A stretch of DNA of 49,698 bases from Oleiphilaceae bacterium (GCA_041591755.1 JBFHRI010000001.1:1-49698); one strand, 5' to 3'; positions 4,343 through 49,698 are shown, numbered from the stretch's first letter. Notes: generated by a model not told the origin, from the sequence alone. Program-made: numbers and translations.

Positions 4343-4349
4343 GTGCGCT

Positions 4350-6503: not shown

Positions 6504-6574
6504 CGGCTCTCCCTGCTAAAGTGTTTTAGAAAATGGATGGGGCCGAGTGGCGGCGCAGCACATGGGCAAGTTTC

Positions 6575-7429: not shown

Positions 7430-7472
7430 TGATTAATCCTACAAACTAGAAATTGCCCCGCACTTGGCCATC

Positions 7473-8267: not shown

Positions 8268-8336
8268 CGGAGTCTTCCTATATTGCAGAAGCAAAGAGTA
8301 CCCAGAGGTAACCAAAAATGCCAGTCAGTAGCGGAC

Positions 8337-29644: not shown

Positions 29645-29998
29645 ATGAGTGTGGTAGATTCGTTTGTTCCGACCCCCTTGGTATTTACCGATGCGGCGGC
29701 GGCCAAAGTCAAAGAGTTGGTGGAAGATGAGGGTAACCCTGATCTCAAGTTACGGGTCTATGTGACTGGTGGTGGTTGCTCCGGGTTCCAGTATGGCTTC
29801 ACCTTTGACGAGGAGTTGGCCGAGGATGACACGGTGATTAGCAACCAGGGCGTCAATCTAGTGGTGGACCCTATGAGCTACCAATATCTGGTCGGCGCCA
29901 CGGTGGACTACCAGGAAGGTCTTAAAGGCGCCCAATTCTCGGTGAGCAACCCGAATGCCACGTCCACTTGTGGCTGTGGATCTTCGTTCTCGATCTAA
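29645..29998 (+). CDS. erpA: iron-sulfur cluster insertion protein ErpA
   Basis: 117 aa HesB/IscA family protein. GGGCSGFQY and C-terminal CGCGSSFSI. Confidence 0.9.
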
Positions 29999-32935: not shown

Positions 32936-34615
32936 ATGGCGTTGACGCAGTCCGAGCAGAAAAAATTTGCCCAGGCCAGTATCGAGAGCATGTATCGGGT
33001 CTTTACAGTGCCCGAGGCGCCATCGTCGACACTGGCGCGTATCGACCGAGACATTTCCGCTAACCTGGCGGGATTTCTCCAAGATCACATCGTGGCGGTC
33101 GAGCATGATCTGCAGGCGATGGAGAAAGATTTTTCCGATTCCCGCATTCCCGAGAAACCTATTTTCGTTTCTGAGCACACCCAATTCGTGCTGGACAAAC
33201 TGGTTTCGCGTTCGGTTCACACGGCCTCGCCCAGCTTCGTCGGGCACATGACTTCGGCCTTACCCTATTTTATGTTGCCTTTGTCCAAGATCATGATTGC
33301 CCTCAATCAGAATCTGGTCAAAACCGAAACCTCCAAGGCCTTTACGCCCTTGGAGCGTCAGGTCAGCGGGATGTTACATCGCCTGGTATACAACCAGGAT
33401 GACGATTTCTATGCGCGTTGGATGCACAATGCAGAGTATTCGCTGGGCGCTGTGTGTTCGGGTGGTACGATTGCGAACATCACGGCCCTTTGGGCAGCGC
33501 GTAATCTTTGCTTGCCGGCAGAAGGGCAGTTTCGGGGTGTGGCGCATGATGGCCTGTTCCGCGCCCTGCAATATTATGGCTATGAGGGCGCTGCGATCGT
33601 GGTGTCCAAGCGGGGTCATTATTCCCTGCGCAAGGCTGCAGATTTGTTAGGGATCGGCCGCAGTAATCTGGTCGCCATTCCAACTGACGATAATAATCGT
33701 ATCGATCTGGATGCTTTGCGTGCTGTCTGTGAGGATCTGCAACAACGTAAGATCTGCATTCTTGGTATTGTCGGGATTGCCGGCACGACCGAAACAGGTA
33801 GTGTCGACCCCTTGGACGAAATGGCGGAGATCGCACGACAGTTCAAGGCGCATTTTCATGTCGATGCCGCTTGGGGCGGCCCCACCTTGTTCTCCAATAC
33901 CTATAAACATTTGCTCAAGGGCATTGAAAAAGCGGATTCGGTGACACTGGATGCGCACAAGCAGCTTTATGTGCCGATGGGCTGTGGCATGGTCTTGTTT
34001 AAAGATCCGGCCAAACTCAAAGCGATTGAACACCACGCACAGTATGTGATTCGTCAGGGTTCCAAGGATTTGGGTGCCACCACGCTCGAGGGTTCACGTC
34101 CAGGCATGGCCATGTTGGTACATTCCGGGTTGAAAATCATTGCCCGCGAAGGTTATGAGATTCTGATTGATCAGGGCATCGAAAAAGCACGTGACTTTGC
34201 CACGATGCTGGACCAGCAATCCGATTTTGAGGTCATTTCCTATCCCGAGTTAAATATCCTGACCTATCGCTATCGTCCTGCTTACGCAGCGGCGGCGCTG
34301 GCGGAAGCCGATCAACACCAGATGGACCGCATCAACGAGGTCTTGGATCGAGTGACCAAGGCCATTCAAAAGACACAGCGTGAGAAGGGCTTGTCGTTTG
34401 TCTCGCGTACCCGCTTGGAGCCGCTGAAATATGGTGGCCGACCCTGCGTGGTGTTTCGTGTGGTCTTGGCGAACCCGCTGACCACGCGTGAGATTCTGCA
34501 GGACATTCTCAAAGAGCAGCGCGAAATCGCCGAACACGATGAAGGATTGCGCAGCGCGATGCGCCAATTGCAAAGTGTGTGTGCTAAAACCAAACAGCGT
34601 GCTGCTGGGGCGTGA
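32936..34615 (+). CDS. group II PLP-dependent decarboxylase, possibly PanP-type aspartate 1-decarboxylase
   Basis: 559 aa. HMTSALPYF, SGGTIANITALWAAR and DAHKQLYVPMGCG (PLP lysine) motifs. The size and N-terminal region recall the putative pyridoxal-dependent aspartate 1-decarboxylase family. Confidence 0.8.
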   Translation: MALTQSEQKKFAQASIESMYRVFTVPEAPSSTLARIDRDISANLAGFLQDHIVAVEHDLQAMEKDFSDSRIPEKPIFVSEHTQFVLDKLVSRSVHTASPSFVGHMTSALPYFMLPLSKIMIALNQNLVKTETSKAFTPLERQVSGMLHRLVYNQDDDFYARWMHNAEYSLGAVCSGGTIANITALWAARNLCLPAEGQFRGVAHDGLFRALQYYGYEGAAIVVSKRGHYSLRKAADLLGIGRSNLVAIPTDDNNRIDLDALRAVCEDLQQRKICILGIVGIAGTTETGSVDPLDEMAEIARQFKAHFHVDAAWGGPTLFSNTYKHLLKGIEKADSVTLDAHKQLYVPMGCGMVLFKDPAKLKAIEHHAQYVIRQGSKDLGATTLEGSRPGMAMLVHSGLKIIAREGYEILIDQGIEKARDFATMLDQQSDFEVISYPELNILTYRYRPAYAAAALAEADQHQMDRINEVLDRVTKAIQKTQREKGLSFVSRTRLEPLKYGGRPCVVFRVVLANPLTTREILQDILKEQREIAEHDEGLRSAMRQLQSVCAKTKQRAAGA

Positions 34616-35076: not shown

Positions 35077-35301
35077 AAACTTCTCCTGATTCAAAAAAGT
35101 GCGTGTCTGCGAAAGCAGAGCCAACGGCTTCTAATTAAAAACCAGAACCGGCGAATGCACAATCTCGATGCGTTGACCCGAATGGTAATCTTGCTAACTC
35201 GCAGGGGCGTGTCGGATGCGCGATTTCTGCTACCCTTAGAGATTGACTAACAATAATCCGTTCCATCGCTAGCGATTTATGCCCCGGAGTAAGTGAGCCC
35301 A

Positions 35302-37884
35302 ATGCCAGGACTGCGCACCTGTTCAATGCTGCTATGGATAGCTTGTCTATGGCTAACGAGCTTGCCCGCATTTGCTTCGGAGATCCCGCTAAATCAGCTT
35401 GAGCCTGGCCAGATCAACCAAATGATCCGCTTGCAGGTGTTGCATGAAAGCGCAGATCCCTTGACTCCGGAGCAAGTCTTAACACATGAGGATTGGCAGG
35501 CGCCAGAGGTCTTGCCGGCAAATTTCGGCTATCTCGATCACGCGGTTTGGTATCGTTTTCGCGTTCGCAATCCCGAGCCGGTGCGCCAGTCAAACATCCT
35601 AATCATCAACTACCCAATGCTTGATTTCATCAATTTGCTTGAGGTGCGACAGGGGCAAGCGTTGCTGATTGCCGAGGCAGGAGATGAACTACCCTACCAT
35701 GCACGTGAAATTGATCATCCCTATTTCCTGTTTCCATTAACCCTGGAAGCGGGCGAGGCGCGCGAGTTCCTGGTGCGGGTGCAAACCGAAGGAGCGCATC
35801 TGTTGCCAATAGAGTTGTGGCGGGATCGCGAACTGTTCGTCAAGTTAGGGCATGAAGATCAATTGCATGCCGTGTACTTTGGCGTGGTGGGCGTCATCAT
35901 CTTTTTTAACCTGCTCATCTATGTGGCGCTGCGCGAAAAGATGTATCTGTACTACGTCTGCTCAGTGTTCATGTTTATGCTGTTTTTTATGCTGATGCGG
36001 GGTAAGTTGTATCCGATTCTCTTATCAGAAGATCCGGCATTCCATAAGACCCTGTTATTGCTCGTGTTGCCGGGCTGTTTACTGTTTTCAGCCCTCTTCT
36101 CACGCGAATTCCTCTCTCTGCCGCAGTATAGTCGCGCGCTCGATTTACTCTGCCGTTGTATCGCAGGGTCGGCGCTTTTCTGTATGGCCTGCATTCCTTT
36201 CTTGACGGCGCAAATGTCGCTCAAACTTTCGGTTGCGATCGCGGTACCGGGGACTTTCCTGTTGCTGTTGTTCGGACCACTTCTAGTGCTGATGGGCAAT
36301 CGCAACGCGTGGGTATACGTTGCTGCGTGGAGCACCCTAATGTTCGGCTCTGCCATCACCGCGATGAGCAAGCATGGTATGTTGCCGGTGAGTTTTATGA
36401 CCGAGTTCGGCATGCAGATTGGATCGGCCCTCGAGGCTTTCATCTTCAATGCGGCACTGGCCTTTCGTTTCTATCGCGAGCACCAGGATCGGATTACGGC
36501 ACAACAGGCACGTTTGAAAGAAAACGCGGAACGACGCGAAGCAGAATTAAAACTGGTGCAGGCCTCAATGTCGGAACCGGTGACGCTGCTGCCCAACCGC
36601 ATGTGTTTCGAGCGTCAGATCACGCTGGAGTTGGCGCGTCGAGAGGCCCGACGTTTGGGGGTCGGAGTGATTGAGATTCGGCGTTACGGAGAAATCAAAC
36701 GCTCTTTGGGGCATCATAATACCGACCTGGTGATGCGCGAAGTGGCGCATCGTATGAATCAATGGTTCGCGGCCATGCCCGGTTTGATCGTGATCGATGG
36801 CCCTTCCTTCTCGGCCAATATTTGTGCATTGGAGCAAGGTACGTTTGGCGTATTGGTCAATGCTGATACCGCTGAGCATGATTACTCGCCCGTCAGTGAA
36901 GTGATTCGGCGCCTGATGAAGCCCATCGAATACAATGGCATGCGACTGACCATGAACCCTTCTATTGGTATTGCTGTGTGTCCGGAGCATGGCGTGAATG
37001 CCGCAACCTTATTACGCAACGCGCAAGTGGCCGCCGATTCGACCGAAGCACACGAGAAAACCCTGGCCTATTATCGCCAAGATATCGACCAATCGAACGC
37101 ACGCCGGTTGGTGTTGATATCCGAGCTGCGTGACGCCATCGAAAACAATGCGCTCGAACTCTATTTCCAACCTAAATGGGATTACCAGAAGCGCCAAGTG
37201 GTGTGTGTTGAAGCGCTATTGCGTTGGCACCACGAGCGTTATGGCATGGTGCGTCCGGACGAGTTTGTGGCCCTGGCTGAGCAGACCGGCATTATTCGAG
37301 CGTTGACCCGTTGGGTGATTGACCGCGCATTGTCTTATCTCAAACGGTTTCACGATGAAGGCTTCAATATCAGTATGTCGATCAACATCTCCGCATTGAA
37401 CCTGCGCGAAGCGGATTTGGGCGAGTTCTTGCAAACCACCATTAAGAAATATGCATTGAACTCGGCGGATGTGTATTTGGAGTTGACAGAAACGGCCATG
37501 ATGCAAAATTCGCAGGTGTCCATCTTGAAGCTGGCAAATCTGCGTAAGACCGGTATCAAGGTTTCGGTCGATGATTTTGGCGCAGGCTTTTCTTCGTTGA
37601 GTTATTTACGCAGCTTACCCGCCGATGAAATCAAGATTGATAAGTCTCTGACCGCCTACATCGCAACGGAAATTCAAAGCGAAATTGTCACGCGTAAGTC
37701 GATTGAAATGTGCCATGCCCTGGGCTTTGAAGTCGTGGCTGAGGGTGTCGAGTCACCGGAGATGATCGAGTTGTTGCAGGCGATGGGTTGCGATCAGATT
37801 CAGGGCTACGGAATCAGTCCACCCTTACCATTCGATGAGCTTTTATATTGGTTGCGCCACCAGAGCGAGAAAGTGTGCCTTTAA
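35302..37884 (+). CDS. 7TMR-DISM sensor with degenerate GGDEF domain and EAL phosphodiesterase domain
   Basis: About 860 aa. Signal peptide, periplasmic domain, seven hydrophobic segments and a coiled coil. The GGDEF-like domain has LLPNR, but EQGTF replaces GGDEF. The EAL domain has EALLRW, DDFGAGFSSLSYL, KIDKSL, AEGVES and QGYGISPP. Confidence 0.85.
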   Translation: MPGLRTCSMLLWIACLWLTSLPAFASEIPLNQLEPGQINQMIRLQVLHESADPLTPEQVLTHEDWQAPEVLPANFGYLDHAVWYRFRVRNPEPVRQSNILIINYPMLDFINLLEVRQGQALLIAEAGDELPYHAREIDHPYFLFPLTLEAGEAREFLVRVQTEGAHLLPIELWRDRELFVKLGHEDQLHAVYFGVVGVIIFFNLLIYVALREKMYLYYVCSVFMFMLFFMLMRGKLYPILLSEDPAFHKTLLLLVLPGCLLFSALFSREFLSLPQYSRALDLLCRCIAGSALFCMACIPFLTAQMSLKLSVAIAVPGTFLLLLFGPLLVLMGNRNAWVYVAAWSTLMFGSAITAMSKHGMLPVSFMTEFGMQIGSALEAFIFNAALAFRFYREHQDRITAQQARLKENAERREAELKLVQASMSEPVTLLPNRMCFERQITLELARREARRLGVGVIEIRRYGEIKRSLGHHNTDLVMREVAHRMNQWFAAMPGLIVIDGPSFSANICALEQGTFGVLVNADTAEHDYSPVSEVIRRLMKPIEYNGMRLTMNPSIGIAVCPEHGVNAATLLRNAQVAADSTEAHEKTLAYYRQDIDQSNARRLVLISELRDAIENNALELYFQPKWDYQKRQVVCVEALLRWHHERYGMVRPDEFVALAEQTGIIRALTRWVIDRALSYLKRFHDEGFNISMSINISALNLREADLGEFLQTTIKKYALNSADVYLELTETAMMQNSQVSILKLANLRKTGIKVSVDDFGAGFSSLSYLRSLPADEIKIDKSLTAYIATEIQSEIVTRKSIEMCHALGFEVVAEGVESPEMIELLQAMGCDQIQGYGISPPLPFDELLYWLRHQSEKVCL

Positions 37885-38315: not shown

Positions 38316-39359
38316 ATGAGTGATCCCGTCTCCAACATTCGCTTAACCCAATTCAGCCACGGCGCTGGCTGCGGCTGTAAGATTTCTCCGGCCGTGCTCG
38401 ACGTGATTCTCGCCGGCAGTGGTGCCCAACATCTTGATCCACGACTCTGGGTGGGGAATGCCTCGCGCGATGATGCAGCGGTCTATGCGCTGGATGATGA
38501 ACGCGGCGTGATTTCCACGACCGATTTTTTTATGCCGATCGTGGATGACCCTTTTGATTTTGGTCGTATAGCGGCAACCAACGCAATCAGTGATGTTTAC
38601 GCGATGGGCGGCACGCCCTTAATGGCGATCGCCATTCTCGGTTGGCCGGTGAACCAGCTAGCGCCTGAATTGGCGCGTGAAGTTGTGCGCGGTGGACGCG
38701 CCGTATGTGATGCGGCCGGTATTCCGCTAGCCGGCGGCCACTCGATTGATGCGCCAGAGCCGATCTTTGGGTTAGCGGTGACCGGTGAGGTGAAACGCGC
38801 CCATATCAAACGCAACGATACCGCGCAGGTGGGCGCACGCCTGTTCCTAACTAAGCCGCTGGGCATCGGTATTTTGACCACCGCCGAGAAGCGCGGCGTG
38901 CTGCGCGCGCAGGACATCGGTCGGGCCCGGGATTTGATGTGTACCTTGAATCGTGTCGGGAGCCGTTTTGGTGAGTTGTCCGGAGTTCAGGCGATGACCG
39001 ATGTCACCGGTTTCGGTTTGGCCGGTCACCTGGTTGAAATGGCCGACGGCAGCGGCCTGACGGCGCGCCTCGATTTTACAGCGGTGCCGTGCATTGCGGG
39101 CGTGGAGCATTATCTTGCCTTGGGCTGTGTTCCCGGCGGCACCGAGCGCAACTATGCCAGTTATGGTGAGCGCTTGGCGCCGCTTACACCATCGCAAAAA
39201 CAGCTGCTGTGTGATCCACAAACCAGTGGAGGCTTGCTAGTGGCGGTAGCGCCTGAAGAATGCGCGCATTTTCTGGATGTGGCACTGAGTGCCGGCGTCG
39301 AGGCGATCGAAATTGGTGAAATGTGCGCACGCTCCAGTTACGCGGTGGAGCTTGCCTAA
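38316..39359 (+). CDS. selD: selenide, water dikinase (selenophosphate synthetase)
   Basis: 347 aa. N-terminal [11 protein letters not shown] glycine-rich loop (Cys form, no in-frame UGA) and PurM-like fold motifs. Confidence 0.95.
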
Positions 39360-40486
39360 TGAGTCAACGACGCGACAACAGTGCCGATTATCGACACCTG
39401 TTTCTCAATGATGTCCCGCTGTTCGATGTCCGCGCGCCGGTCGAATTTCGCAAAGGGGCCTTCCCCAATGCCACGAATTTACCCTTAATGAATGATTTAG
39501 AACGGCAGCGCGTCGGCACCTGCTATAAAAACCAGGGCCAGCAGGCGGCCATTGCGCTTGGCCACCAATTGGTCAGCGGCGACATTAAGCAGCGGCGTAT
39601 CGAAGCGTGGGTTCAGTTTGCCCGTAATCATCCTGAGGGTTACTTGTATTGTTTTCGCGGGGGGCTGCGTTCGCAGTTGAGCCAAAAATGGCTCGAGACC
39701 GAGGGCGGTATTGCCTATCCTCGTGTTTTAGGTGGCTATAAAGCCATGCGCAGCTTTTTGCTTGAGGAGCTGGAAAAAGCCGTGCACGAGTGTCAGTTTT
39801 TATTGGTCGGCGGACTCACCGGCTGCGGTAAAACCGAAGTCCTCGAAGCGCTCGACAATGCCATTGATCTTGAAAAGCTCGCCAATCATCGCGGCTCCAG
39901 TTTTGGTAAACACGCTTCGCCGCAGCCGGGTCAGATCGACTTCGAGAACGCGTTGGCCATCGAGTTTTTGAAACGGCGTGCCCGCGCTCAAAACAAGTTT
40001 GTGTTAGAGGACGAAGCGCGCATCATTGGGAGTTGTGCCATACCCTTGCCGCTGTTCAATGCCATGAAGCAGATGCCGCTGATTTGGCTGGAGGACAGCT
40101 TGGAGCGGCGGGTCGAGCGCATCCTGCAAGCTTACGTCATTGAGTTGCGTGACGAGTTTATCGCCGAGCAGGGAGAGGTGCGGGGGCAGGCGGCCTTCGC
40201 GGATCGATTGTTGCAAAGCCTGGCTAATATCGTAAAACGTTTGGGGGGCGAGCGTTATCAGCGCCTCAATGCCTGGATGAACGAAGCGCTTGAGGAGCAA
40301 CAGCGTAATGGCAATGTCGCGCGCCATCGCGTCTGGATTGAAGCCTTGCTGACGGAATACTACGACCCGATGTATGCCTATCAACGCGAACAAAAAGCGC
40401 AACGCATTGTGTTTTCAGGGCACCATGCACAAGTGGTCGATTATTTGCGCTCGCGCAGCACGCAGCCACCACAGCACGCGTACTGA
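39359..40486 (+). CDS. selU: tRNA 2-selenouridine synthase
   Basis: 375 aa from ATG 39359, overlapping the selD stop (TAATG). Rhodanese region [29 protein letters not shown] cysteine loop and P-loop GGLTGCGKT. Confidence 0.9.
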
Positions 40487-40607
40487 GAAGATCAGAATGC
40501 AGTACTGGGACTGCGTCTCAATTTGCGTATAATCGGCTAACTGTTGCGGGTCTGAGCCCGAGACAGGCAATCACTCGTCTTTTCCGCTATTGAACCGGAG
40601 AATTCCC

Positions 40608-41459
40608 ATGCTCAAACGTCTTATGGCGTGCTTCGCCATGGCTGTCATTTCACTTTTTTCTACGCTTAATCATGCCGAATCCGTGCTCCGCGTTTCGGCC
40701 ATTCCGGATGAGGCTCCGACCGAGTTGCTACGTAAATTTGCGCCCCTAGGCGCTTACCTGGAGCAGCAACTGGGCATGAAGGTGCAGTTTGTACCGGTCA
40801 CCGACTATGCTGCCGTGGTCGAAGCGCTGGCCGCTGACCGCGTCGACTTAGCCTGGTTGGGAGGCTTCACCTTTGTTCAGGCGCGCCTTAAGACGGGTGA
40901 TGCGATTCCCCTGGTCCAGCGTGAACAGGATCGTCAATTCACCAGCAAAATTATTAGCGCCGATCCGGCCGTTAAATCACTGCAAGACTTAAAGGGTAAG
41001 AGCTTTGCTTTTGGCTCGGTCTCTTCGACTTCGGGTAGCCTGATGCCGCGTTACTTTATGCAGCAGGACGGCATCGTGCCCGAACAGTTCTTCAGTCGCG
41101 TGGCTTATTCCGGTGCGCATGATGCGACCGCCGCGTGGGTCGAAGCCGGCAAGGCCGACGGCGGTGTGTTGAACGCCTCGGTCTGGGATAAGCTGGTCAG
41201 CGAAGGCAAGGTTGATGTGAACAAAGTCAAAGTGATTGCAACCACGCCGCCGTATTTCGATTACAACTGGACGGTACGTGGGAAGCTCGACGCCGATTTA
41301 ATCAGCAAGATCAAGGCGGCATTTCTGGCGCTCGACCCGGCGCAGCCCGCGCACAAAGAGATTCTGGATTTACAACGTGCCAGCCGCTTTATCGAAACCG
41401 ACGTGGTGAACTATAGCTCGATCGAAGCCGCAGCACGCGACGTAGGTCTGTTGCAATAG
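40608..41459 (+). CDS. PhnD-family ABC substrate-binding protein (putative selenate/oxyanion binding)
   Basis: 283 aa from ATG 40608, with GGAGA 6 nt upstream. Signal peptide. PhnD-like motifs (VSAIPDE, DLAWLGG, FGSVSSTSG). It lies immediately downstream of selD-selU. Confidence 0.75.
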   Translation: MLKRLMACFAMAVISLFSTLNHAESVLRVSAIPDEAPTELLRKFAPLGAYLEQQLGMKVQFVPVTDYAAVVEALAADRVDLAWLGGFTFVQARLKTGDAIPLVQREQDRQFTSKIISADPAVKSLQDLKGKSFAFGSVSSTSGSLMPRYFMQQDGIVPEQFFSRVAYSGAHDATAAWVEAGKADGGVLNASVWDKLVSEGKVDVNKVKVIATTPPYFDYNWTVRGKLDADLISKIKAAFLALDPAQPAHKEILDLQRASRFIETDVVNYSSIEAAARDVGLLQ

Positions 41460-42280
41460 TGTCTGTAGCCGCGTCGAAGCGCCTTGCCTTGCGGGGCGTT
41501 TCTCTGTCATATGCCGCACAATGGGCGCTCAACGATATTGCGTTTGCTGTAGCCCCGGGCGAGTCGGTGGCGATTATCGGGCCTTCCGGTGCAGGCAAGA
41601 CCTCCCTGTTGCGTCTGTTAGCGACCGCCCTGCAACCGCAACAGGGCGAACTGCACTTGCTTGGCCAGCAACCCTGGCGCATGAGCGCTAGCGCACGGCA
41701 AGGTTTGCGTGCGCGCATCGGACTGATCCATCAGACCCCCCCTTTGCCACCCCGTCAGCGCGTGGTCACGGCCATCGCGGCCGGGCGGCTGGGGCAGTGG
41801 TCATTGTTGCGCAGTGTATTAAATCTGGCCCACCCTTTGGACGCCCCGGGCATCGCGGCCGCTTTAGGTCGCTTTGATCTGGCGCATCGTCTCTATGCGC
41901 GTTGCCATGAGCTTTCCGGGGGGGAGCAGCAACGGGTCGGCATTGCGCGTGTCTTATATCAAGCGCCGGAGCTGATTCTGGCGGATGAGCCGGTATCGGC
42001 CTTGGATCCGGTGTTGGCTGATCACACGTTGGCCGTTTTGCAGCGCGAAGTGCAACAGCGGAATCTTAGCTTAGTGGCCAGCCTGCATGCGGTCGACCTG
42101 GCCTTGCGACATTTTCCGCGTATTATCGGCCTGCGTGCAGGACGCATCCTGTTCGACAAAGCCGCAGGCTGTGTCACTCAGGAGGATCTGGATCGGCTGT
42201 ATGCCAATACGCAGTTGCAGGTACAGCCCGAGCCGCAAGCCTCATCGCCGCGCCCAGTGCATTGTGGCGGGCTGGGCTAA
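41459..42280 (+). CDS. ABC transporter ATP-binding protein (PhnC-like)
   Basis: 273 aa, GTG start. Walker A GPSGAGKTS, signature LSGGEQQR and Walker B LILADEP. Confidence 0.85.
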   Translation: MSVAASKRLALRGVSLSYAAQWALNDIAFAVAPGESVAIIGPSGAGKTSLLRLLATALQPQQGELHLLGQQPWRMSASARQGLRARIGLIHQTPPLPPRQRVVTAIAAGRLGQWSLLRSVLNLAHPLDAPGIAAALGRFDLAHRLYARCHELSGGEQQRVGIARVLYQAPELILADEPVSALDPVLADHTLAVLQREVQQRNLSLVASLHAVDLALRHFPRIIGLRAGRILFDKAAGCVTQEDLDRLYANTQLQVQPEPQASSPRPVHCGGLG

Positions 42281-42292
42281 GGCGTCCTGCTC

Positions 42293-43900
42293 ATGACGCA
42301 AAGACTGACGCGCACGGTGTTGCAACAGCGCGATCCAGCGGCGCTACCGCGCCTACTGATCAGTGTCTTGGCCATTGCCTTGCTTTGGCCAGGCTTGCAC
42401 TACAGTGAGCTCGATCTCGCAGTGCTGTTCGATAGCGAGGCCAATCGCGCGATGCGTCATCTGGCCGCGACTTTTTGGCCTCCTGCTTATACCGGTGATT
42501 TCCTGTCCCTGTTGCTGCGCGCCACCGCGGAAACCCTGGCGATCGCCATCACGGGCATGGCGCTCGCCCTGTTACTGGCGTTTCCCGCCTCTTTATTGGC
42601 CAGCCGCGCCCTCTCGCGCTCAGCACTGCACCGCCAAGGCCGCCCCTCAATCTTGGGGCGCTGCTTGCGTTGGCCGCTGCGTTTGCTCTTAATTATCTTG
42701 CGCTCCGTGCCCGAAATTGTCTGGGCGCTGCTGTTTGTGCGTGCGGTGGGGCTGGGGCCGACCGCGGGCGTGTTAGCGATCGCGATTACCTATAGTGGCA
42801 TGTTGGGCAAGGTGTATGCCGAAATCTATGAGTCGGTGGATCGTCGGCCGGCACAGGCCCTCATGGGCGCCGGTGCCTCGCGTCTGACGGCATTTCTATA
42901 TGGCATTTTGCCAAACGCTGCAAGCGAGATGATTTCGTATACGGTCTATCGTTGGGAATGCGCGATACGGGCTTCGGTGGTCATGGGCTTTGTCGGCGCC
43001 GGCGGCTTGGGCCAGCAGATGGAATTATCACTGCGCATGTTTGCCGGCGGTGAAGTACTCAGTTTTCTGTGCATGTTTTTGCTTTTGGTATTGCTAGCCG
43101 ACCAATTGAGTCGTTTTTTGCGTTGGCAGCTGGTCGCGCGAGCGCGGCCTCGCGGTTTACCCGTCGCACTCGCCGCCGGGTTCTTGGTCGTCGTGGCATG
43201 GCAGTTTCTAGGTCTGGATCTCGGTGGCCTCGGTGCCACCGAATCTTGGCAACAAATGGCGCGGTTTGCGCAGCCCTTCTTCAGCCCTGATCTATCGCTT
43301 TCACAGTTAAGTCGCTTGAGTCAGGCGGCCCTCGAAACCCTCGCCATGTCGGCGGTCGGCACCCTGCTTGCCGCGGTTTGCGGGTTACTCGTGGCCATTC
43401 CCGCGGCCGGACGACTTGGCTGGCCGGCCCAGCACGTGGCGCGCCTGCTCTTAAATAGCCTACGCGCGGTGCCGGAACTGGTGTGGGCGGCGCTGATGGT
43501 GCTGGCGGCCGGACTGGGCCCGAACGCGGGGACCTTGGCCCTGGCCTTACATACCACCGGCGTTTTGGGCCGGCTCTTTGCCGAGGCGCTGGAAAACACG
43601 CCTGCCACGCCTGCGCGCGCGATACGGCTGGCCGGAGGCAGCCGCCTGGACGCCTTTTGCTATGGCACCCTGCCGGGGCTTTGGCCGCAGCTATTGGCCT
43701 ATACCTTGTATCGTTGGGAAAACAATATTCGGATGTCCAGCATCCTCGGTTTTGTTGGCGCGGGAGGTCTCGGACAGATGCTCTATGTGCATTTGAGTTT
43801 GTTTCAGAGTGCTCAGGCGGCCAGCGTTATTTTGGTGATGTTGCTTTTGGTCATGCTGGTGGATGGGATGAGCCAGGCGCTGCGAAGTAAAGCGATCTAG
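42293..43900 (+). CDS. ABC transporter permease, tandem-fused PhnE-like
   Basis: 535 aa with two homologous halves. Each half has a PhnE-type pattern: ...SVPEIVWALLFV...GVLAIA... and ...AVPELVWAALMV...GTLALA... Confidence 0.8.
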   Translation: MTQRLTRTVLQQRDPAALPRLLISVLAIALLWPGLHYSELDLAVLFDSEANRAMRHLAATFWPPAYTGDFLSLLLRATAETLAIAITGMALALLLAFPASLLASRALSRSALHRQGRPSILGRCLRWPLRLLLIILRSVPEIVWALLFVRAVGLGPTAGVLAIAITYSGMLGKVYAEIYESVDRRPAQALMGAGASRLTAFLYGILPNAASEMISYTVYRWECAIRASVVMGFVGAGGLGQQMELSLRMFAGGEVLSFLCMFLLLVLLADQLSRFLRWQLVARARPRGLPVALAAGFLVVVAWQFLGLDLGGLGATESWQQMARFAQPFFSPDLSLSQLSRLSQAALETLAMSAVGTLLAAVCGLLVAIPAAGRLGWPAQHVARLLLNSLRAVPELVWAALMVLAAGLGPNAGTLALALHTTGVLGRLFAEALENTPATPARAIRLAGGSRLDAFCYGTLPGLWPQLLAYTLYRWENNIRMSSILGFVGAGGLGQMLYVHLSLFQSAQAASVILVMLLLVMLVDGMSQALRSKAI

Positions 43901-43911
43901 GCTTGGGTCTA

Positions 43912-43935
43912 TGCGCATCGCCGCCGCGATGCGCA
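43912..43935. terminator. hairpin between convergent operons
   Basis: TGCGCATCGC-CGCC-GCGATGCGCA, a 10-bp perfect stem with a 4-nt loop. No U-run on either strand. Confidence 0.35.
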
Positions 43936-43965
43936 AACTGGCAGATTTGAACCATCACACACGCC

Positions 43966-44841
43966 TCAATGCCGACTCGTGGCGGGCCTGGCTTTGGTGC
44001 TTGTCGGAAGATGGGCCAGCAAACGGCTGGGCTGTCCATCAGCCGAGACAAATTTACCCGCTGCAAAGCTTGGCAGGTAATGTGCGTTGAGCAGGTGGCC
44101 CGCGGCCTTGTAATAAAATTTACGGCCGGAAAATGCCTCGGGATTATCGGCAATACCAATGCGCGCGACGAAGTCGTCGCTGTGGTAGAAATGCTCGGCG
44201 TAAATTTGTGGTAGGTCCATCTCGGTGGCCGCACTAGCGAAGGTGTAAACCTCGAGTTTGTTGAGCAGACGAGCGCGACTGCCGATCAATTCCTGCACCA
44301 GCTTTTTCAGCGCACCGGTGGTGATGATGCCGCCTTGGGAATGCGCGATCAGCACCACTTTTTTATGTTTTTCGAGGGCCTCCTTGAGAATAGAGGCGAC
44401 GCTGCTTTCTAAAGTCGAAATCGGCTGCATCGTGCGACCGACCATACACTCGAGTAAATCCAAGAACATGCCATCCGAAGGGTTGTGCATCAGATGGATG
44501 CGGCGTTGGAACCGGTCCGCCAGGGCTTTACCATTGAGGCGCAGCACGTTGCGGTCGGTACAAATGCCGTTAAGAAAAAACCAGGCCTGACCATCGTCGA
44601 TCGCCGCGCCTGCGGCAGGCACCTCGTAGGGAAGATGCGGTACTTCTCGGAACGGCGCGAATATCGGCAGCATGGTGGCGACCATGGCATGGGTAAACTG
44701 TTGCGCCGATTCATAATTGCCGGGATTACATTCCGACCAGGGTGCACCTTGTTCCAGCGGGGAAAGGACATGCGGCAGGTAGGGCAAATTCTTGATCACA
44801 GTTTGGGCGCGTTGCAGGGCACGGGTTAGCATAAGGGTCAC
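43966..44841 (-). CDS. alpha/beta-fold serine hydrolase (lipase/esterase-like)
   Basis: 291 aa. Nucleophile elbow VVLIAHSQGG (GxSxG type), preceded by an FFLNGI...HNPSDG segment. Last gene of the five-gene operon. Confidence 0.6.
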   Translation of the reverse strand: MTLMLTRALQRAQTVIKNLPYLPHVLSPLEQGAPWSECNPGNYESAQQFTHAMVATMLPIFAPFREVPHLPYEVPAAGAAIDDGQAWFFLNGICTDRNVLRLNGKALADRFQRRIHLMHNPSDGMFLDLLECMVGRTMQPISTLESSVASILKEALEKHKKVVLIAHSQGGIITTGALKKLVQELIGSRARLLNKLEVYTFASAATEMDLPQIYAEHFYHSDDFVARIGIADNPEAFSGRKFYYKAAGHLLNAHYLPSFAAGKFVSADGQPSRLLAHLPTSTKARPATSRH

Positions 44842-44898
44842 ACTCCGATAAAGATGGAACGAGTTGTCGTTGTTTTAGCGTTCCCTGCACGAGCCGAC

Positions 44899-46164
44899 TC
44901 ATCTTATTGATTGAGTATTTGTTTTTTGTTTGCGGTTTACCCGGCGCATGGACTCAGTGGTCTTTGGGGGCGAGCCGGCAAATTGTTCCGAGCCATCCGG
45001 CTCAATATGTTTCTCGCCGTTGATGTGTTGTCGCATCATGGCTGTGGCTTGATAAATCGTTTTGCGGGCGCGGTTCTGATTTCCCAAGGGGCGGTGTTCG
45101 GCCAGTGTGTGCCAGGGATTAAACGTAAGGTTGCGCGCAAAAGCGTCTTGCGCCGGATAGTTAAAACGTTGCGCTTCGATGGTCAATGTGGCGATCGGGA
45201 TAAACGGTGATTCCTTCTCGTTCCAGACGACAGAAGCATCTTCAATCGGCATCAAGACCGGATCGGTTTGCAATTGGATGGCGATATCGAACACCACGGA
45301 CTGCTTGCTAAGCGTCTGGATCATCGCTTCACGCAAATAGTTATCAGACAGCGGCCCGACTTTAGAGGGCTGTTCGACACGCGGCAAAAACGCATATTTC
45401 ACGGCGCGATTCTGGCCATTCAACTGTCCAAACAAGTAGGGCACGCAACTGTAATAGTTCAACTCCAGCGGGTTAGCATGCAGACGTGCATACAGTCCCT
45501 GCATGACCAAGTCTAGGTAATGCGAGTCGAAAGGATTGAGAAAATACCACGCGGGCGTGCCTTTGCCGATTTGGCGTTGTAGCTTAAGGTTTTCCTGTAC
45601 GTTCGGTGTGGTGAAGCTGGGTGAGCTGATGCCCAAAAAATCGACCGTGAACTGCTCATCGTCCAGTAGCTTTTTACCCGGCACACCCATCAGTTTAATG
45701 CCGATACTCAAAATGCCGTTGTCTCTGACATCGGGCACCACACGAGGGCCCGGTCCGCCAAAGCGCACATAGGCCGGATAACGCTTGCCTGGCTGAAACA
45801 GACCGACTTGGAGCTCACGAGGCAGATCAGGCAAAACCTCAAACTGCGCTTTGACCAAACCGTAGGTCTTGGTATTGCCGGCTCGTTCGGCCGTTTTCCC
45901 GGTGTCGGCATACTCTTTTTGCAAGAAACAGTTCATCGTCGTCGTGATGTGTTGGGTGATTGCGGCTTCGTTGGGTTGCAAGGTTTCTTCAGCCAGCAAT
46001 TGGCCATGATCTCGCAATCGCAGACGAATCAGTTTTTGGGTCAGGTGTTCGATCGGCGGGCGCAACCACTGATCAAAGGCGTCGCGGTAGTACGGCTCTA
46101 AACGACGGGCGACGCCGATGACAGTATTGGTACCACGCTCAACCAGTTGGGGTATCAAGTTCAT
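44899..46164 (-). CDS. catalase-fold heme protein (y4iL-like catalase family member)
   Basis: 421 aa from ATG 46164, with GGAG 8 nt upstream. GTG 46182 is an alternative start. ERAGNTKTYGLVKAQFEV aligns with catalase ERVVHAKGAGAFGYFEV. VRFGGPG...DVRDNG..GIKL aligns with RFS...D..RD.RGFA.KF. C-terminal FNPW...RPLGNQNRARKTIYQATAMMR resembles the proximal Tyr motif. Confidence 0.7.
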   Translation of the reverse strand: MNLIPQLVERGTNTVIGVARRLEPYYRDAFDQWLRPPIEHLTQKLIRLRLRDHGQLLAEETLQPNEAAITQHITTTMNCFLQKEYADTGKTAERAGNTKTYGLVKAQFEVLPDLPRELQVGLFQPGKRYPAYVRFGGPGPRVVPDVRDNGILSIGIKLMGVPGKKLLDDEQFTVDFLGISSPSFTTPNVQENLKLQRQIGKGTPAWYFLNPFDSHYLDLVMQGLYARLHANPLELNYYSCVPYLFGQLNGQNRAVKYAFLPRVEQPSKVGPLSDNYLREAMIQTLSKQSVVFDIAIQLQTDPVLMPIEDASVVWNEKESPFIPIATLTIEAQRFNYPAQDAFARNLTFNPWHTLAEHRPLGNQNRARKTIYQATAMMRQHINGEKHIEPDGSEQFAGSPPKTTESMRRVNRKQKTNTQSIR

Positions 46165-46202
46165 TTTGGGCTCCGGGGCCACTCATTGCCGACCAAGGGT
46201 GC

Positions 46203-47645
46203 TTACTCGGAAAACAGAAAACGCATCGCGCGTCGACTGGGTAAGAAGAAATAGCCACCGCCTCGCGTTTGCACAAAAGTCGGCAGCTGCTTTAGCTTGC
46301 GCCGAATCGGCCATTGCTGAATCGTGAACTGATCCTGCATGCGGCCATTGAAGCGGCGGATGCCGGTAATGGGGTCACTATCGTGATACAGCCCGTTAAA
46401 ATTGGCGTTATTGGACCAGGTATGCTGTACGAACTCGAACTGGCGACCGATATTGGCGTTCAAGCATATAAAATGCAGACCGCGGGCTTTGGGCGCTGCC
46501 TCTCGATCGAGGTTAGCGAGGAAGCGCTCGGGGTTCATGCTGCGATCGAAGGGTTTGCCATAGGCACGGCCCCGTCGCAGCAGGCGATGGCGATTGGCAA
46601 ATGCCATCGATTTTTCTGATCCGGGCTCAGGCGGCAAACTATCGCGCGGATGGGTGCGCCGGATATGCGCACCGAGTGGGCATTTTAAACCATCCGGATC
46701 CGTGGCGTGATAATTGAACGCATCCTTGTCTTCCAGCTCGGGGTTATCTTGCTGCGGTGCGAGTACCAGGGGGGCGCCACTGGGCCAACGACCGACCATT
46801 TTGGAGGCGAGCGTAATCGGACACTGTTCACTGCTTGGGGAGGCCTCGGCCTGACTTTTCATATAGCGCCAAAAGGCTGGAACGTCCTGAAAGAGTTGTC
46901 GAAAGACGAGGTAGGTGCCATTGAAGCCGAGATCTCGCAATGTGCTGCCCTCCGGGTCGGAGACCAGAAGCTGGTGTGGGTCTTGTTCAGGCTCAAGCAG
47001 GGGGCGCCGGGTGTAGCGCTCATACCCATTCGGATAGCCCAACAATATCTCACCCAAAGGTACGGGATTGTCTTGGGTGTGTTGCGTTTTATCGAATTCA
47101 GCGATGTAGGGTTGCGCGATACCATCGCGAAATCCAAAGTGCTCTTTAAATTCGCTCAGCGCTTCGGTGTCTAAGCGCGCGATCAAGCTTAAGCCGTTGT
47201 CTTGCAGATGCTGTGTCAGTTCCCCCGTCAGTTTTGCCAGGCTGCTGGGCGAATTGCCGTAGCATAATAACAGCACATCGACAGGAGGAGTTTCCGGGCC
47301 ACCCCAGAGCCAGTTTTCCGGTGCACTATCGCCCTCATCACCGAGAATGTGCCGCTTGTGCGGCGTCGTCATGCCGGAGCGGAACTCGTCGGAAAAGCCC
47401 GCCAGAATGTGTTCGTCGATGCCCAGTTGTTGCAAACCATGATGGCTTAGCGCCACATTCAGCGCCTGTGTTTCAGGTCGTGAGTCGGCATAGTTCACCT
47501 GACCGACCAGGTCACGCAACCAGACCAGTGAGGCATGTCGGTCGCGAATGCTAAGGAGAAGGAATTCGGCCGCGGGCAATTTGCCGTAGCCGCGAACGAC
47601 CAGGCCCTGAATATCATTAAAGTCGACTGCGGGAGCTGAGGCCAT
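46203..47645 (-). CDS. DyP-type heme peroxidase
   Basis: 480 aa. N-terminal DIQGLVVRGYG, catalytic HFGFRDGIAQP (GxxDG), proximal His segment GAHIRRTHPRD, LLRRGRAYG, and C-terminal GGGYFFLPS. Confidence 0.85.
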   Translation of the reverse strand: MASAPAVDFNDIQGLVVRGYGKLPAAEFLLLSIRDRHASLVWLRDLVGQVNYADSRPETQALNVALSHHGLQQLGIDEHILAGFSDEFRSGMTTPHKRHILGDEGDSAPENWLWGGPETPPVDVLLLCYGNSPSSLAKLTGELTQHLQDNGLSLIARLDTEALSEFKEHFGFRDGIAQPYIAEFDKTQHTQDNPVPLGEILLGYPNGYERYTRRPLLEPEQDPHQLLVSDPEGSTLRDLGFNGTYLVFRQLFQDVPAFWRYMKSQAEASPSSEQCPITLASKMVGRWPSGAPLVLAPQQDNPELEDKDAFNYHATDPDGLKCPLGAHIRRTHPRDSLPPEPGSEKSMAFANRHRLLRRGRAYGKPFDRSMNPERFLANLDREAAPKARGLHFICLNANIGRQFEFVQHTWSNNANFNGLYHDSDPITGIRRFNGRMQDQFTIQQWPIRRKLKQLPTFVQTRGGGYFFLPSRRAMRFLFSE

Positions 47646-47717
47646 GGGGGTAATCCTGTGTGAATAGCGTCCTGGGTTAAAAGTTACATGTCGTACGCTT
47701 TGGCTTATGCGGCACCC

Positions 47718-49049
47718 TTACAGGCGCCGCAGCCACGCGCTCGCCTCGCGCTCAGTCATGCTGCCGGAGAGGCCCTTACGAATGGCGGCATTGTTAGCAA
47801 TATTAACCGCCGTTAAATGCGGATAAGGGCTATACCACACCTGATTGTCGATCTGGTGTAGCGCGAGATAGTCTTTAAAACGCTGCTCTTTGCGGGCGCC
47901 CTCATGCACGATCCAACGCGTGAGCGGGTACCCGACACCATTACTGAAAATCAGATTGAGCCCCCAAGCGACTTTATCGATAAAGTCGACCATGTAACTT
48001 TCGAGGCTGCCATCGTAATTACTGGTGAACAATAGGCGGCGGTTGTCATCCAGCAAGGTCCAGCGCGCAAAGTGAATCGTATCGACGCCATCCAGGCCAA
48101 GCAGCGGGATACCGGCCAGATTGCCGTTATTGAATACATGCCGCAGTACCACTTGGGCGGCTGCTAACAGTGCACGAGTGGTGGTCAGCCGGAGCCAACC
48201 TGGTTTAACGTACCCCACCGCGGCAAAGGGGTTGTGGGTGGCGATGTCTTCAGCGGCTCGCAACTGATTAACGCGCGACAGTGGCGCCCGGTGCGTGTAT
48301 TCCTCGTCGCTGAATTCCCGCTTGCGTAGGGCCAGTAACCAGGCCAGCAAAAGCGGCCAGCCCCAGGCCACAATTAGTAAACCCAGGGCGGCATAGGCGC
48401 TGAAGATCGCGCGATCCACAAGACGCGAGAGGAGTGGGCGTTGCGCCGCTTGCGCCAGGGCCCAAGCCAGTTCCGGATGTTCGCCGACGAAACGAATCAC
48501 CGCTTCTCGTACATCGGATGCAGAGCGAAAATCTCGGGCTTCCAAACCATCCAAAAAGGTCTGCAGCGCTTCGCGCAGCTCATCTTCTTGGCGAATCTGC
48601 GCGGCCGAACGGCCTATGGTATTGATGTAATAAGCCTGCGAGGGCAGTTGGTGGGCGCGTAGATACGCGCCCTTCTTCTGCCGGTTGCCTTTGAGCGGAT
48701 AGCCACGGCAGGCCTGCAGTACCTGGTCGAGGCCGTTGCTGTAGAGCAATAACTCATCGAGAAAATCCGCCACCGGGCCATCGATATTAGCCAGAAGGAC
48801 CAAGGTGCTGCCATATTTTTGCGGGTGGTCGGGTCCATCCAACACGATGAAGCGCGCAAAGTGCAATTTGCTGAAGACCGAAAACGGTAGGATCGGATTG
48901 TCGGCCGGATCTTGGTTGATCTCGGCCAGGACCTCGCGTAATTCCGCTTCTTGCGGCTCCTTGATCGGCAGCCGCAGCGTGAGCGCATTTTGCGGGGTCG
49001 GGTGCAAGGCGTCCAACAGCGCTTTGCTCTTCGTGAGTAACCACTTCAT
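47718..49049 (-). CDS. hypothetical protein with internally duplicated HFAR(F/W) domain and a central hydrophobic segment
   Basis: 443 aa. LHFARFIVLD...LVLLANIDGPVADFLDELL in the N-terminal half is repeated as IHFARWTLLD...LLFTSNYDGSLESYMVDFIDKV in the C-terminal half. A hydrophobic stretch, AIFSAYAALGLLIVAWGWPLLLAWLLAL, lies between them. AGGAA Shine-Dalgarno. Confidence 0.6.
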   Translation of the reverse strand: MKWLLTKSKALLDALHPTPQNALTLRLPIKEPQEAELREVLAEINQDPADNPILPFSVFSKLHFARFIVLDGPDHPQKYGSTLVLLANIDGPVADFLDELLLYSNGLDQVLQACRGYPLKGNRQKKGAYLRAHQLPSQAYYINTIGRSAAQIRQEDELREALQTFLDGLEARDFRSASDVREAVIRFVGEHPELAWALAQAAQRPLLSRLVDRAIFSAYAALGLLIVAWGWPLLLAWLLALRKREFSDEEYTHRAPLSRVNQLRAAEDIATHNPFAAVGYVKPGWLRLTTTRALLAAAQVVLRHVFNNGNLAGIPLLGLDGVDTIHFARWTLLDDNRRLLFTSNYDGSLESYMVDFIDKVAWGLNLIFSNGVGYPLTRWIVHEGARKEQRFKDYLALHQIDNQVWYSPYPHLTAVNIANNAAIRKGLSGSMTEREASAWLRRL

Positions 49050-49067
49050 CGTCGCGTTCCTGCGGTA

Positions 49068-49646
49068 TCAGCAATTATTAGTTTCCAGCGCGAAATCCAG
49101 CACTCGGCGTTTCCCTAACCAGACCTTGCCCAGGTAAATGCCCGGCGCTACCTCGCGAATTTCATCGCGAATCGAGCGCGCGAGTAGAGAGGTGCTACCG
49201 TAGTCGATCACGGTGGTGTCTTTGCCATCCATCCAGCTTTTGTCGCGATACACTTTGGCGACGATCAACTTGCTGCCAATCGGCAGCACTTTATTAACCA
49301 CTACGCCCGAGTTGTAGTCCGGCGCAAACAAATCAAAGACTTTGCCTTGCCAGGCTAGCTTACGAGCGATCGCGGCAAATACCCGGCCGGTCAGGCGATT
49401 TCCTAAAATGGCGGTACCGCGGGTATCGCCTTGCGGCACCGCACCGGGTTTGGCTTGTTTATAAATTTGGTCTAATTCTTTGCGCGACATCTGTAACCAC
49501 TGCGAGACCAGTGGTTGTGGGGAGCTGACGGGCTCAGACCGCGCCGCAGTGCTACGCCGTGACGGCTGGGCGCTGCTGGATTTGGGTTTCGCTTTGCCAC
49601 GCTTCACGCTGGTTTTGCTGGGGGCTTCGGTGCTGGCAATACTCAT
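49068..49646 (-). CDS. hypothetical protein: basic disordered N-terminus plus GXWXG/DUF4334-like domain
   Basis: 192 aa. The first ~45 residues are Lys/Ser/Pro/Arg-rich. The AWQGKVF and VIDYGS...IRDEIREVAPGIYLGKVW segments resemble GXWXG plus DUF4334 proteins, recalled from memory only. GAGGA Shine-Dalgarno 8 nt upstream. Confidence 0.5.
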   Translation of the reverse strand: MSIASTEAPSKTSVKRGKAKPKSSSAQPSRRSTAARSEPVSSPQPLVSQWLQMSRKELDQIYKQAKPGAVPQGDTRGTAILGNRLTGRVFAAIARKLAWQGKVFDLFAPDYNSGVVVNKVLPIGSKLIVAKVYRDKSWMDGKDTTVIDYGSTSLLARSIRDEIREVAPGIYLGKVWLGKRRVLDFALETNNC

Positions 49647-49698
49647 AGCGGCATTCCTCGTTTAGTGGCTCACGGCCAAGGTTCGGGAGGTTGTGAGC

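Follow-up and report, generated by a model that had tools for sequence, protein, structure and literature searches.

Why should a bacterium encode a DyP-type haem peroxidase and a catalase-fold protein next to each other, in a closely packed set of genes with a hydrolase and two further proteins? The question is raised by one end of a contig from an Oleiphilaceae bacterium (GCA_041591755.1, JBFHRI010000001.1:1-49698), where five open reading frames (ORFs), here called g1 to g5, were listed on the minus strand within 43966-49646. The window examined is the whole contig of 49,698 nucleotides (nt), and positions are numbered along it. An original prediction had taken these ORFs to be an operon and had suggested that it acts on a lipid or organic hydroperoxide rather than simply on H2O2. 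In the analysis reported here, g1, g2 and the DyP gene g3 were found to form a core that recurs in many bacterial lineages, usually with the catalase-fold gene g4. The favoured reading, to which a probability of about 0.5 is given, is that g1-g5 would be part of a membrane-associated, multi-haem module that processes lipid peroxides, and not a scavenger of H2O2.

The evidence begins with conservation. A scan with a g2 profile, in which each species was represented by one genome, found relatives in at least 562 genomes. The best 80 loci were analysed; they come from Gammaproteobacteria, Desulfuromonadales, Cyanobacteria, Chloroflexota, Actinomycetota, Gemmatimonadota, Bacteroidota and Acidobacteriota (about eight phyla). 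When these loci were searched with the five window proteins by tblastn, g2 was found in 80/80, DyP in 79/80, g1 in 76/80 and the catalase-fold protein in 61/80, with g5 in 10/80. The DyP gene comes directly after g2 in 79 of the 80 loci, and in the majority of the 76 loci with g1 this gene lies immediately upstream of g2; the order g1, g2, DyP hardly varies. In the 48 loci whose flanks are complete, DyP is present in 48, g1 in 45, the catalase-fold gene in 42, an oxygenase or oxidase partner in 38, and a lipase-like hydrolase in 23. In this comparison of gene neighbourhoods, then, four of the five genes keep company across phyla, and the refuting condition named with the original prediction, a lack of such co-occurrence, does not apply.

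Natural fusions join the same components. In several Streptomyces genomes, g1 and g2 are a single ORF. P450, g2 and DyP are combined in giant proteins of 1620 amino acids (aa) on a Sulfitobacter plasmid (L081, 3775-8637) and 1443 aa on a Novosphingobium plasmid (L082, 3592-7923), both of which keep the hydrophobic segment of g2 described below. Furthermore, among the g1 matches listed, the g1 domain is found fused to a P450 or to an An_peroxidase domain. Because natural fusions link them, it can be argued that g1, g2, DyP and a second haem oxygenase would make up one physical unit. These findings also bear on the simplest alternative, that five functionally unrelated genes merely happen to lie side by side. 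Such an explanation can appeal to the fact that co-transcription of the five genes is deduced from their spacing; given the collinear arrangement of g1-g2-DyP in about eight phyla and the fusions among the components, it is effectively refuted.

What these genes might act upon is suggested by the company they keep. All other ORFs of the 80 loci were clustered, and most of the resulting gene clusters carry no annotation. The commonest extra neighbour, present in 45 of the 80 loci and usually located beside g1 or DyP, is a protein of the animal-haem-peroxidase family (PF03098) whose best match in the PDB is the rice fatty-acid alpha-dioxygenase (E 1.4e-125, residues 39-611, full length). An Abhydrolase_1 hydrolase lies near the g1-g2-DyP triad in 25 loci and a patatin-like phospholipase in 10. 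In 5 loci, a P450 gene is inserted between the dioxygenase-like gene (AnPOX) and g1, giving the order AnPOX, P450, g1, g2, DyP, catalase-fold. A RoxA-like di-haem cytochrome c also recurs near the triad, as does a further paralogue of the catalase-related kind, which hhalign aligns to g4 at E 5e-64. In three gammaproteobacterial loci (L008 at 8113-9258, L012 and L015), this paralogue is encoded between the alpha-dioxygenase-like gene and g1, and in an alignment by eye it apparently carries Gln at the position of the distal His. A cyanobacterial 316-aa neighbour also looked catalase-related by eye, an impression that was not borne out by hhalign (0.2 %), and two Nostoc plasmid loci (H24 and H47) yielded no informative annotation.

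The protein at the centre of the cluster, g3 (46203..47645, minus strand, 480 aa), is a DyP. It scores 111.5 bits with TIGR01413 against a cut-off of 100.5 (E 5.1e-32), and it scores under the cut-offs of the Pfam models for the DyP half-domains. Twenty DyPs in the PDB match it, the best being 8RE3, the DrDyP of Deinococcus radiodurans (E 7.6e-51); the other matches are fungal-type DyPs and DyPs labelled 'ancestral D-type'. The GxxDG aspartate, proximal His and distal Arg segments that had been claimed are all present, as GFRDG (171-175), GAHIRR with the proximal H327, and LLRRG with the arginine pair 357-358. All three align with DrDyP (DR_A0145), to which g3 is 31 % identical, and the roles of the residues in these segments have been described (PMC10820274). 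DrDyP is a class C (class V) DyP (PMC10820274). No signal peptide or Tat signal was seen in g3, judged by eye, and TIGR01412 gives no more than 20 bits, the cut-off being 428. By these sequence features, g3 is classed as a cytoplasmic class C/V DyP-type haem peroxidase, not as a member of the EfeB type.

This assignment is relevant to the idea that the cluster handles haem or iron, in which the DyP would be a deferrochelatase of the EfeB kind and g2 an ABM protein that degrades haem in the manner of IsdG. COG does place DR_A0145 in the EfeB group (PMC6300522), and g2, as described below, has an ABM-like ferredoxin fold. However, g3 belongs with class C/V rather than with the Tat-exported class A/EfeB enzymes, as its TIGR01412 score and the lack of a visible Tat signal indicate. 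In addition, neither EfeU/EfeO nor a haem transporter is found among the neighbour families scanned (most clusters being unannotated), and no relation of g2 to DyP is detected by hhalign (probability 0.3 %). A role in haem or iron handling is consequently regarded as very improbable.

The second haem protein, g4 (44899..46164, minus strand, 421 aa), had been called a catalase-fold protein, and on this point structure prediction and fold search agree. An AlphaFold 2 (AF2) model built with 18 homologues has a predicted local distance difference test (pLDDT) score of 83.5, and in Foldseek it matches 184 PDB chains at E <= 0.001. The best of these is the coral catalase-related allene oxide synthase 1u5u (E 1e-15), whose substrates are fatty-acid hydroperoxides. 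The next is 3e4y, the 33-kDa catalase-related protein MAP_2744c of Mycobacterium avium (E 5.8e-14; template modelling (TM) score 0.75, target-normalised), which reacts with organic hydroperoxides; about 180 true catalases come after these two, and E-values of 1e-15 to 1e-11 were reached with catalase-related proteins and true catalases. At the level of sequence, g4 has no match in Pfam at E <= 10, PF00199 (Catalase) included. Its homologues number more than 3000, and it is approximately 35 % identical to y4iL of Rhizobium sp. NGR234 and 30 % identical to DR_A0146 of D. radiodurans.

The haem site of g4 retains the proximal tyrosine of catalases, but not their distal His. The motif R373-x3-Y377-x6-R384 is invariant in 18 diverse sequences, and its spacing is, we take it, that of the proximal-tyrosine motif of catalases. 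With regard to the distal Asn, GISSP (184-188) by eye falls opposite what is presumably the GNNTP of catalase. The segment AERAGNTKTYG is likewise invariant, and its N103 stands opposite the His in the RDAHAKQHG of DR_A0146; the distal His is thus replaced by an invariant Asn103. Hence g4 is probably a Tyr-ligated haem protein that lacks the catalytic distal histidine and, because the distal His has become an Asn, it is by its sequence not a catalase. By analogy, it may work like the mini-catalases but without their distal His. Of the two haem-peroxidase folds claimed for the locus, both stand, in the form of the DyP of g3 and the catalase fold of g4, although with Asn in place of the distal His, g4 is no usual haem peroxidase.

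Two adjacent haem proteins of peroxide-handling folds would at first sight fit an oxidative-stress defence, in which g3 and g4 would simply clear H2O2 or organic peroxides and the remaining genes would play a supporting part. In D. radiodurans, DR_A0145 and DR_A0146 do increase together after exposure to ultraviolet C (UVC) and vacuum (PMC5731708), and reviews count both as oxidative-stress proteins (PMC6300522). Yet g4 has the Asn for the catalytic His and is not recognised by PF00199, DR_A0146 is reported to be without catalase activity (PMC6300522), and DrDyP on its own is six-coordinate low-spin and inactive at the physiological pH of 7.5 (PMC10820274). Furthermore, in most loci the unit is tied to lipases and to enzymes that generate peroxide. 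No regulator family is present among the neighbour families scanned (most clusters being unannotated), which suggests that OxyR and PerR are absent. Because g4 lacks the His, DR_A0146 is inactive as a catalase, and the partners make peroxide, a plain defence against H2O2 is considered quite unlikely.

If lipid peroxides are processed, how might the enzymes be brought to a lipid surface? A possible answer lies in g2 (47718..49049, minus strand, 443 aa). The original prediction of an internal duplication holds: the N-terminal half aligns with the C-terminal half in hhalign with a probability of 98.9 % (E 2.4e-17), and HFARF (63-67) and HFARW (326-330) occur one per domain. Structure prediction gives the same picture, the AF2 model (pLDDT 81.9) consisting of two ferredoxin-like alpha+beta domains linked by a long helix. 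The central hydrophobic segment, also foreseen, corresponds to residues 214-241 (48327..48410, minus strand). Its maximum Kyte-Doolittle value over 19 residues is 2.07, and the maximum is at least 1.95 in 80/80 homologues; in these, the median length of the uncharged run is 26 aa and a Pro lies within the central 12 residues in 80/80. Basic residues were present on both flanks in the ten examples inspected. The segment is probably a membrane anchor and possibly a monotopic hairpin.

The fold of g2 has distant relatives only. At E <= 10 it has no Pfam match, with ABM, SchA_CurD and DyP included, and an exact look-up of its sequence in assemblies found no match. In Foldseek, the best hits are tandem-ABM/SchA-like proteins, namely 9lmn (E 4e-4), 3mcs and 3f44, with E values that range from 4e-4 to 1e-2. 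This likeness has a bearing on another explanation, in which the cluster would tailor or degrade a substrate other than a fatty acid, such as a sterol-like, hopanoid, carotenoid, aromatic or polyketide compound, with the DyP as a radical-forming oxidant and g2 as an ABM-type helper or cofactor-free oxygenase. The proteins most similar to g2 in structure are indeed ABM/SchA-like polyketide proteins and putative monooxygenases, and ABM proteins act in the control of polyketide fidelity (PMC6689052). Moreover, DyPs oxidise many aromatic substrates (PMC10820274), a SARP regulator adjoins the gene for the giant P450-g2-DyP fusion of Novosphingobium, and the GMC enzyme found in the window's own clade (see below) resembles cholesterol oxidase. 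Set against these points, no polyketide synthase (PKS) or non-ribosomal peptide synthetase (NRPS) family is seen among the neighbour families scanned (most clusters being unannotated), the commonest partner is most like fatty-acid alpha-dioxygenases over its whole length, and the patatin and lipase-like hydrolases indicate acyl lipids. A substrate of this other kind is thus thought unlikely.

The first gene of the core, g1 (49068..49646, minus strand, 192 aa), encodes a conserved core of approximately 145 aa that follows a basic, low-complexity N-terminal extension. The basic disordered N-terminus that had been proposed is therefore present, with 9 K/R within the first 45 residues. Only close relatives, most of them Marinobacter-like, have this tail; the other homologues, that of Hahella included, are about 150 aa long. 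The g1 family has 2279 members at 90 % clustering, and a profile search of 1.84 billion proteins gave 1060 clusters at 50 % identity; the matches listed from this search are the best 150 of the 1060. The proposed kinship with GXWXG/DUF4334 proteins, on the other hand, was abandoned, as it was unsupported in every test with hidden Markov models (HMMs). Neither g1 nor 22 diverse homologues had any Pfam match at E <= 10, including PF14231 and PF14232, and 10 of the lowest-ranked among the matches listed (all with E ~1e-22 or stronger) did not match GXWXG/DUF4334 at E <= 0.01. A profile search of the PDB gave no match either. Two further candidate relationships were rejected. An apparent profile match between g1 and g2 proved to be an artefact, caused by ORFs in the alignment that were fused or extended too far, and was discarded, and a 147-aa neighbour in Bacteroidota, considered as a relative of g1, shows no relation to it in hhalign. 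The g1 domain is also found fused to GrpB, to an acetoacetate-decarboxylase-like domain and to DUF4062, combinations that have no obvious fit with a role in lipid metabolism (the fusion proteins of g1 are P0388, P0503, P0440, P0435 and P0412).

The last gene, g5 (43966..44841, minus strand, 291 aa), encodes a lipase-like alpha/beta hydrolase. It matches DUF676 (PF05057) with 25.5 bits against a cut-off of 20.3 (E 1.1e-5), and the AHSQGG that had led to its being called a serine hydrolase forms the nucleophile elbow at 166-171. The residues S168, D223 and H249 do not vary among 10 of 11 orthologues (the partial copy in L003 being excluded) and would constitute the Ser-Asp-His triad. The 10 loci that contain g5 all belong to the Marinobacter/Hahella/Oleiphilaceae clade; judged by this distribution, g5 is specific to the clade and not a part of the wider conserved unit.

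The layout of the locus agrees with the description of five tightly spaced minus-strand ORFs. The gaps between them are, in order, 18, 72, 38 and 57 nt, the third being counted from the ATG of g4 at 46164. The longest ORF for g4 is 44899-46182, with a GTG at 46182, and the 421 aa of the database gene call fit the ATG. Shine-Dalgarno sequences, which had been reported for four genes, were found 7-9 nt 5' of g1 (GAGGA), g2 (AGGA), g3 (AGGA) and g4 (GGAG). The fifth gene, earlier left unchecked, has a GGAG 10 nt 5' of its codon-4 ATG; because the GGAG is well placed for that codon, the start of g5 is probably the ATG at 44832. In 43700-49698, a consensus scan for sigma-70-like promoters found 0 where 3.8 were expected by chance, and no minus-strand intergenic terminator was found. 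Downstream of g5 lies a convergent selenium-utilisation cluster on the plus strand (38316-43900), and the gene cluster therefore ends at g5. This selenium cluster comprises selD, mnmH (tRNA 2-selenouridine synthase) and then a putative selenate ABC transporter made up of a substrate-binding protein (TIGR04553), an ATPase and a PhnE-like permease.

At the other end, the cluster appears to be cut by the edge of the contig, the sequence stopping 52 nt upstream of g1. An open frame at 49662..49698 on the minus strand ends in a TAA 15 nt 5' of the g1 ATG and could be the 3' end of an upstream co-directional gene. In Marinobacter, Hahella and Oleiphilaceae relatives, the gene order is small protein, 270-aa protein, Cys/His-rich Ig-like protein, Abhydrolase_1, GMC oxidoreductase, g1, g2, DyP, catalase-fold, g5. 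In the closest relative contig (L087), independent gene calls show 10 genes in one direction, separated by gaps of -4 to 52 nt. Five of these are upstream of g1, at 4194-8944: the first three encode proteins of 163, 270 and 216 aa, and Abhydrolase_1 and GMC follow. The same order is seen in L001-L016, with junctions that are tiny or overlapping. In L087, L001, L002 and L016, the three small proteins upstream of Abhydrolase_1 give little or no Pfam signal, and one of them has CCHPHHEDCCH repeats. Because the contig ends 52 nt 5' of g1 and the relatives have five further co-directional genes, the five genes are, by this comparison, only the distal half of an operon of about 10 genes. The claim of a five-gene operon was thus correct in that five closely packed genes exist, but the unit is too small, and its conserved core is g1-g2-DyP.

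In the relatives, a GMC oxidoreductase gene occupies the position that matches the frame at the contig edge, and in L001, L002 and L087 its end lies from 18 nt before to 4 nt past the start of g1. The edge frame may therefore be the 3' end of a GMC gene. This identity is given as a possibility because the frame shows no more than 11 codons and the tails of GMC enzymes vary, so that a comparison of the last 52 nt with GMC C-termini could give no match. The GMC enzyme has cholesterol oxidase as its best PDB match (E 6.4e-32). Cholesterol oxidase works at lipid interfaces, where it oxidises lipid alcohols and releases H2O2. Elsewhere in the window are genes for a ClC channel (24953-26833), a TmcA-like acetyltransferase (29995-32148), the aspartate decarboxylase PanP (32936-34615) and a GGDEF/EAL c-di-GMP phosphodiesterase (35293-37884); searches over the whole of 1-49698 found neither a tRNA gene nor an Rfam match at the gathering score.

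Taken together, these results have led to a model for the lipid-peroxide module, in which the catalytic steps, the substrate and the membrane topology are those that we infer from sequence comparison. In this model, g2 would bind the DyP directly and hold the assembly at a membrane or lipid surface through its proline-centred hydrophobic segment, while g1 would dock both on g2 and on the partner oxygenase. A lipase-like hydrolase would free or expose the lipid; here this could be g5 together with the upstream Abhydrolase_1 of the relatives, and elsewhere a patatin. A partner enzyme would then make the peroxide. In most lineages, this would be an alpha-dioxygenase-like haem enzyme that yields a fatty-acid hydroperoxide, and in the clade of the window a cholesterol-oxidase-like GMC flavoenzyme that yields H2O2. 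Finally, the DyP and g4 would consume or rearrange the peroxide to give an oxidised, oxylipin-like lipid. The lipid or organic hydroperoxide chemistry of the original prediction is thus partly supported, and is strengthened by the alpha-dioxygenase-like, P450, patatin, RoxA-like and GMC neighbours and by the fold matches of g4; the extent of the unit and the labels of g1 and g4 are what had to be corrected.

It should be noted that several points weigh against this model. Neither the window nor the complete operon of its clade (L001-L016, L087) contains a gene for a fatty-acid dioxygenase; since the clade has no alpha-dioxygenase-like gene, the reading in terms of fatty-acid hydroperoxides has been carried over from other lineages. 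The cholesterol-oxidase-like enzyme could instead indicate a sterol-like, hopanoid or secondary-alcohol substrate. Ten of the 48 loci with full flanks have no oxygenase or oxidase partner within 10 kb. The coral allene oxide synthase needs its distal His, and g4, which lacks one, may not cleave hydroperoxides at all. For g2, the structural matches are weak (TM 0.37-0.53), and its nearest structural relatives include non-catalytic polyketide 'fidelity' proteins. Lastly, the co-transcription of g1-g5 is read from their spacing, and the function of the cluster as a whole is likewise one that we infer.

A more specific version of the lipid-peroxide model can be put forward tentatively, with rather more doubt than confidence. 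According to this version, g1-g2-DyP would be a previously undescribed, obligate three-component peroxidase in which g2 anchors the DyP at the membrane and activates it and g1 couples it to a lipid oxygenase; together with the His-less catalase-fold protein, it would represent a new branch of bacterial oxylipin metabolism, spread over at least 562 species of about eight phyla and, in a reduced form, Deinococcus. If so, it would provide a first physiological role for bacterial C-type DyPs and would explain why DrDyP is inactive on its own. Most work treats DyPs as stand-alone dye or lignin oxidants. Here, one large DyP lineage is seen almost never to be alone; it travels with g1 and g2, sometimes fused, and usually also with the catalase-fold protein and a lipid oxygenase or oxidase. 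In addition, the cluster would widen the set of bacterial oxylipin-type gene clusters, and g1 and g2 are large families without a Pfam model. After 25 years, the natural substrates and roles of bacterial DyPs are unclear (PMC10820274), and the cluster offers a testable lead to that natural role.

How, then, does the cluster compare with systems already known? The original statement that no characterised operon has this composition agrees with the literature searches, in which no description of a g1-g2-DyP cluster was found. Perhaps the closest parallel is the gene pair of Nostoc punctiforme that encodes a 10S-dioxygenase and a catalase-related hydroperoxide lyase (Brash et al. 2014, as cited in PMC13049297). 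In this pair, as in the coral allene oxide synthase-lipoxygenase (1u5u, 3dy5), a small catalase-fold haem protein is encoded beside a fatty-acid dioxygenase. The present cluster is similar in that an An_peroxidase-family, dioxygenase-like gene adjoins it in the 45 loci mentioned above and in that the coral enzyme is the top fold match of g4. This neighbour enzyme is nearer to alpha-dioxygenases than to the cyclooxygenases in the PDB, in a comparison that the 10S-dioxygenase sequence lay outside. On the other hand, the Nostoc and coral pairs are without DyP, g1 and g2. The catalase-related enzymes of these pairs keep the distal His, whereas g4 has Asn at that position, and in the clade of the window a GMC oxidase-like gene replaces the dioxygenase.

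A second parallel is found in D. radiodurans, where DR_A0144, DR_A0145 and DR_A0146 have the order g2-like, DyP, catalase-fold (L083, 4823-8056). DR_A0144 (243 aa, annotated as hypothetical) matches the C-terminal domain of g2 (hhalign 97.8 %); its end lies 1 nt ahead of the DrDyP start (PDB 8RE2/8RE3), and DR_A0146 comes next. Upstream are genes for a 3-hydroxyacyl-CoA dehydrogenase and a TetR regulator. The Deinococcus locus is a reduced one, without g1, the N-terminal domain of g2 or the hydrophobic segment. Furthermore, DR_A0146 keeps the distal His, unlike g4, and DrDyP has GXXDM where g3 has GXXDG (PMC10820274). The authors of the DrDyP study speculate on partner proteins (PMC10820274). 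The literature on the Deinococcus pair, as searched, treats the two as neighbours only; it says nothing of DR_A0144 and suggests no function for an operon.

Other likenesses are more partial. The fungal dioxygenase-P450 fusions (linoleate diol synthases, Ppo) and the di-haem oleate diol synthase operon of Pseudomonas aeruginosa also couple a peroxide-forming lipid dioxygenase to a second haem enzyme, by which the hydroperoxide is converted, and loci related to the present one share P450 and RoxA-like di-haem partners with them. These systems have no DyP, g1 or g2, and the likeness is one of analogy rather than homology of the core. In NGR234 (L084, 4908-10924), the genes run in the order y4iL, 232-aa hypothetical protein, RoxA-like di-haem cytochrome c, patatin-like phospholipase, which again groups a catalase-fold protein with a haem oxygenase and a lipase. 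That locus also has no DyP, g1 or g2, and y4iL is uncharacterised. Tandem ABM/SchA-CurD-like proteins (WhiE-ORFI, 9lmn; ForS-type, PMC6689052) resemble g2 in having two ferredoxin-like domains per chain. However, the TM scores between them are 0.37-0.44 with about 9 % identity and no Pfam ABM match, and g2 has a conserved hydrophobic insert, invariant motifs of its own, and the context of a DyP rather than that of a polyketide synthase. A bacterial lipid-oxidising haem cluster with a catalase-related member is a known arrangement, and what is new here is the g1-g2-DyP core together with a catalase-fold family that lacks the distal His.

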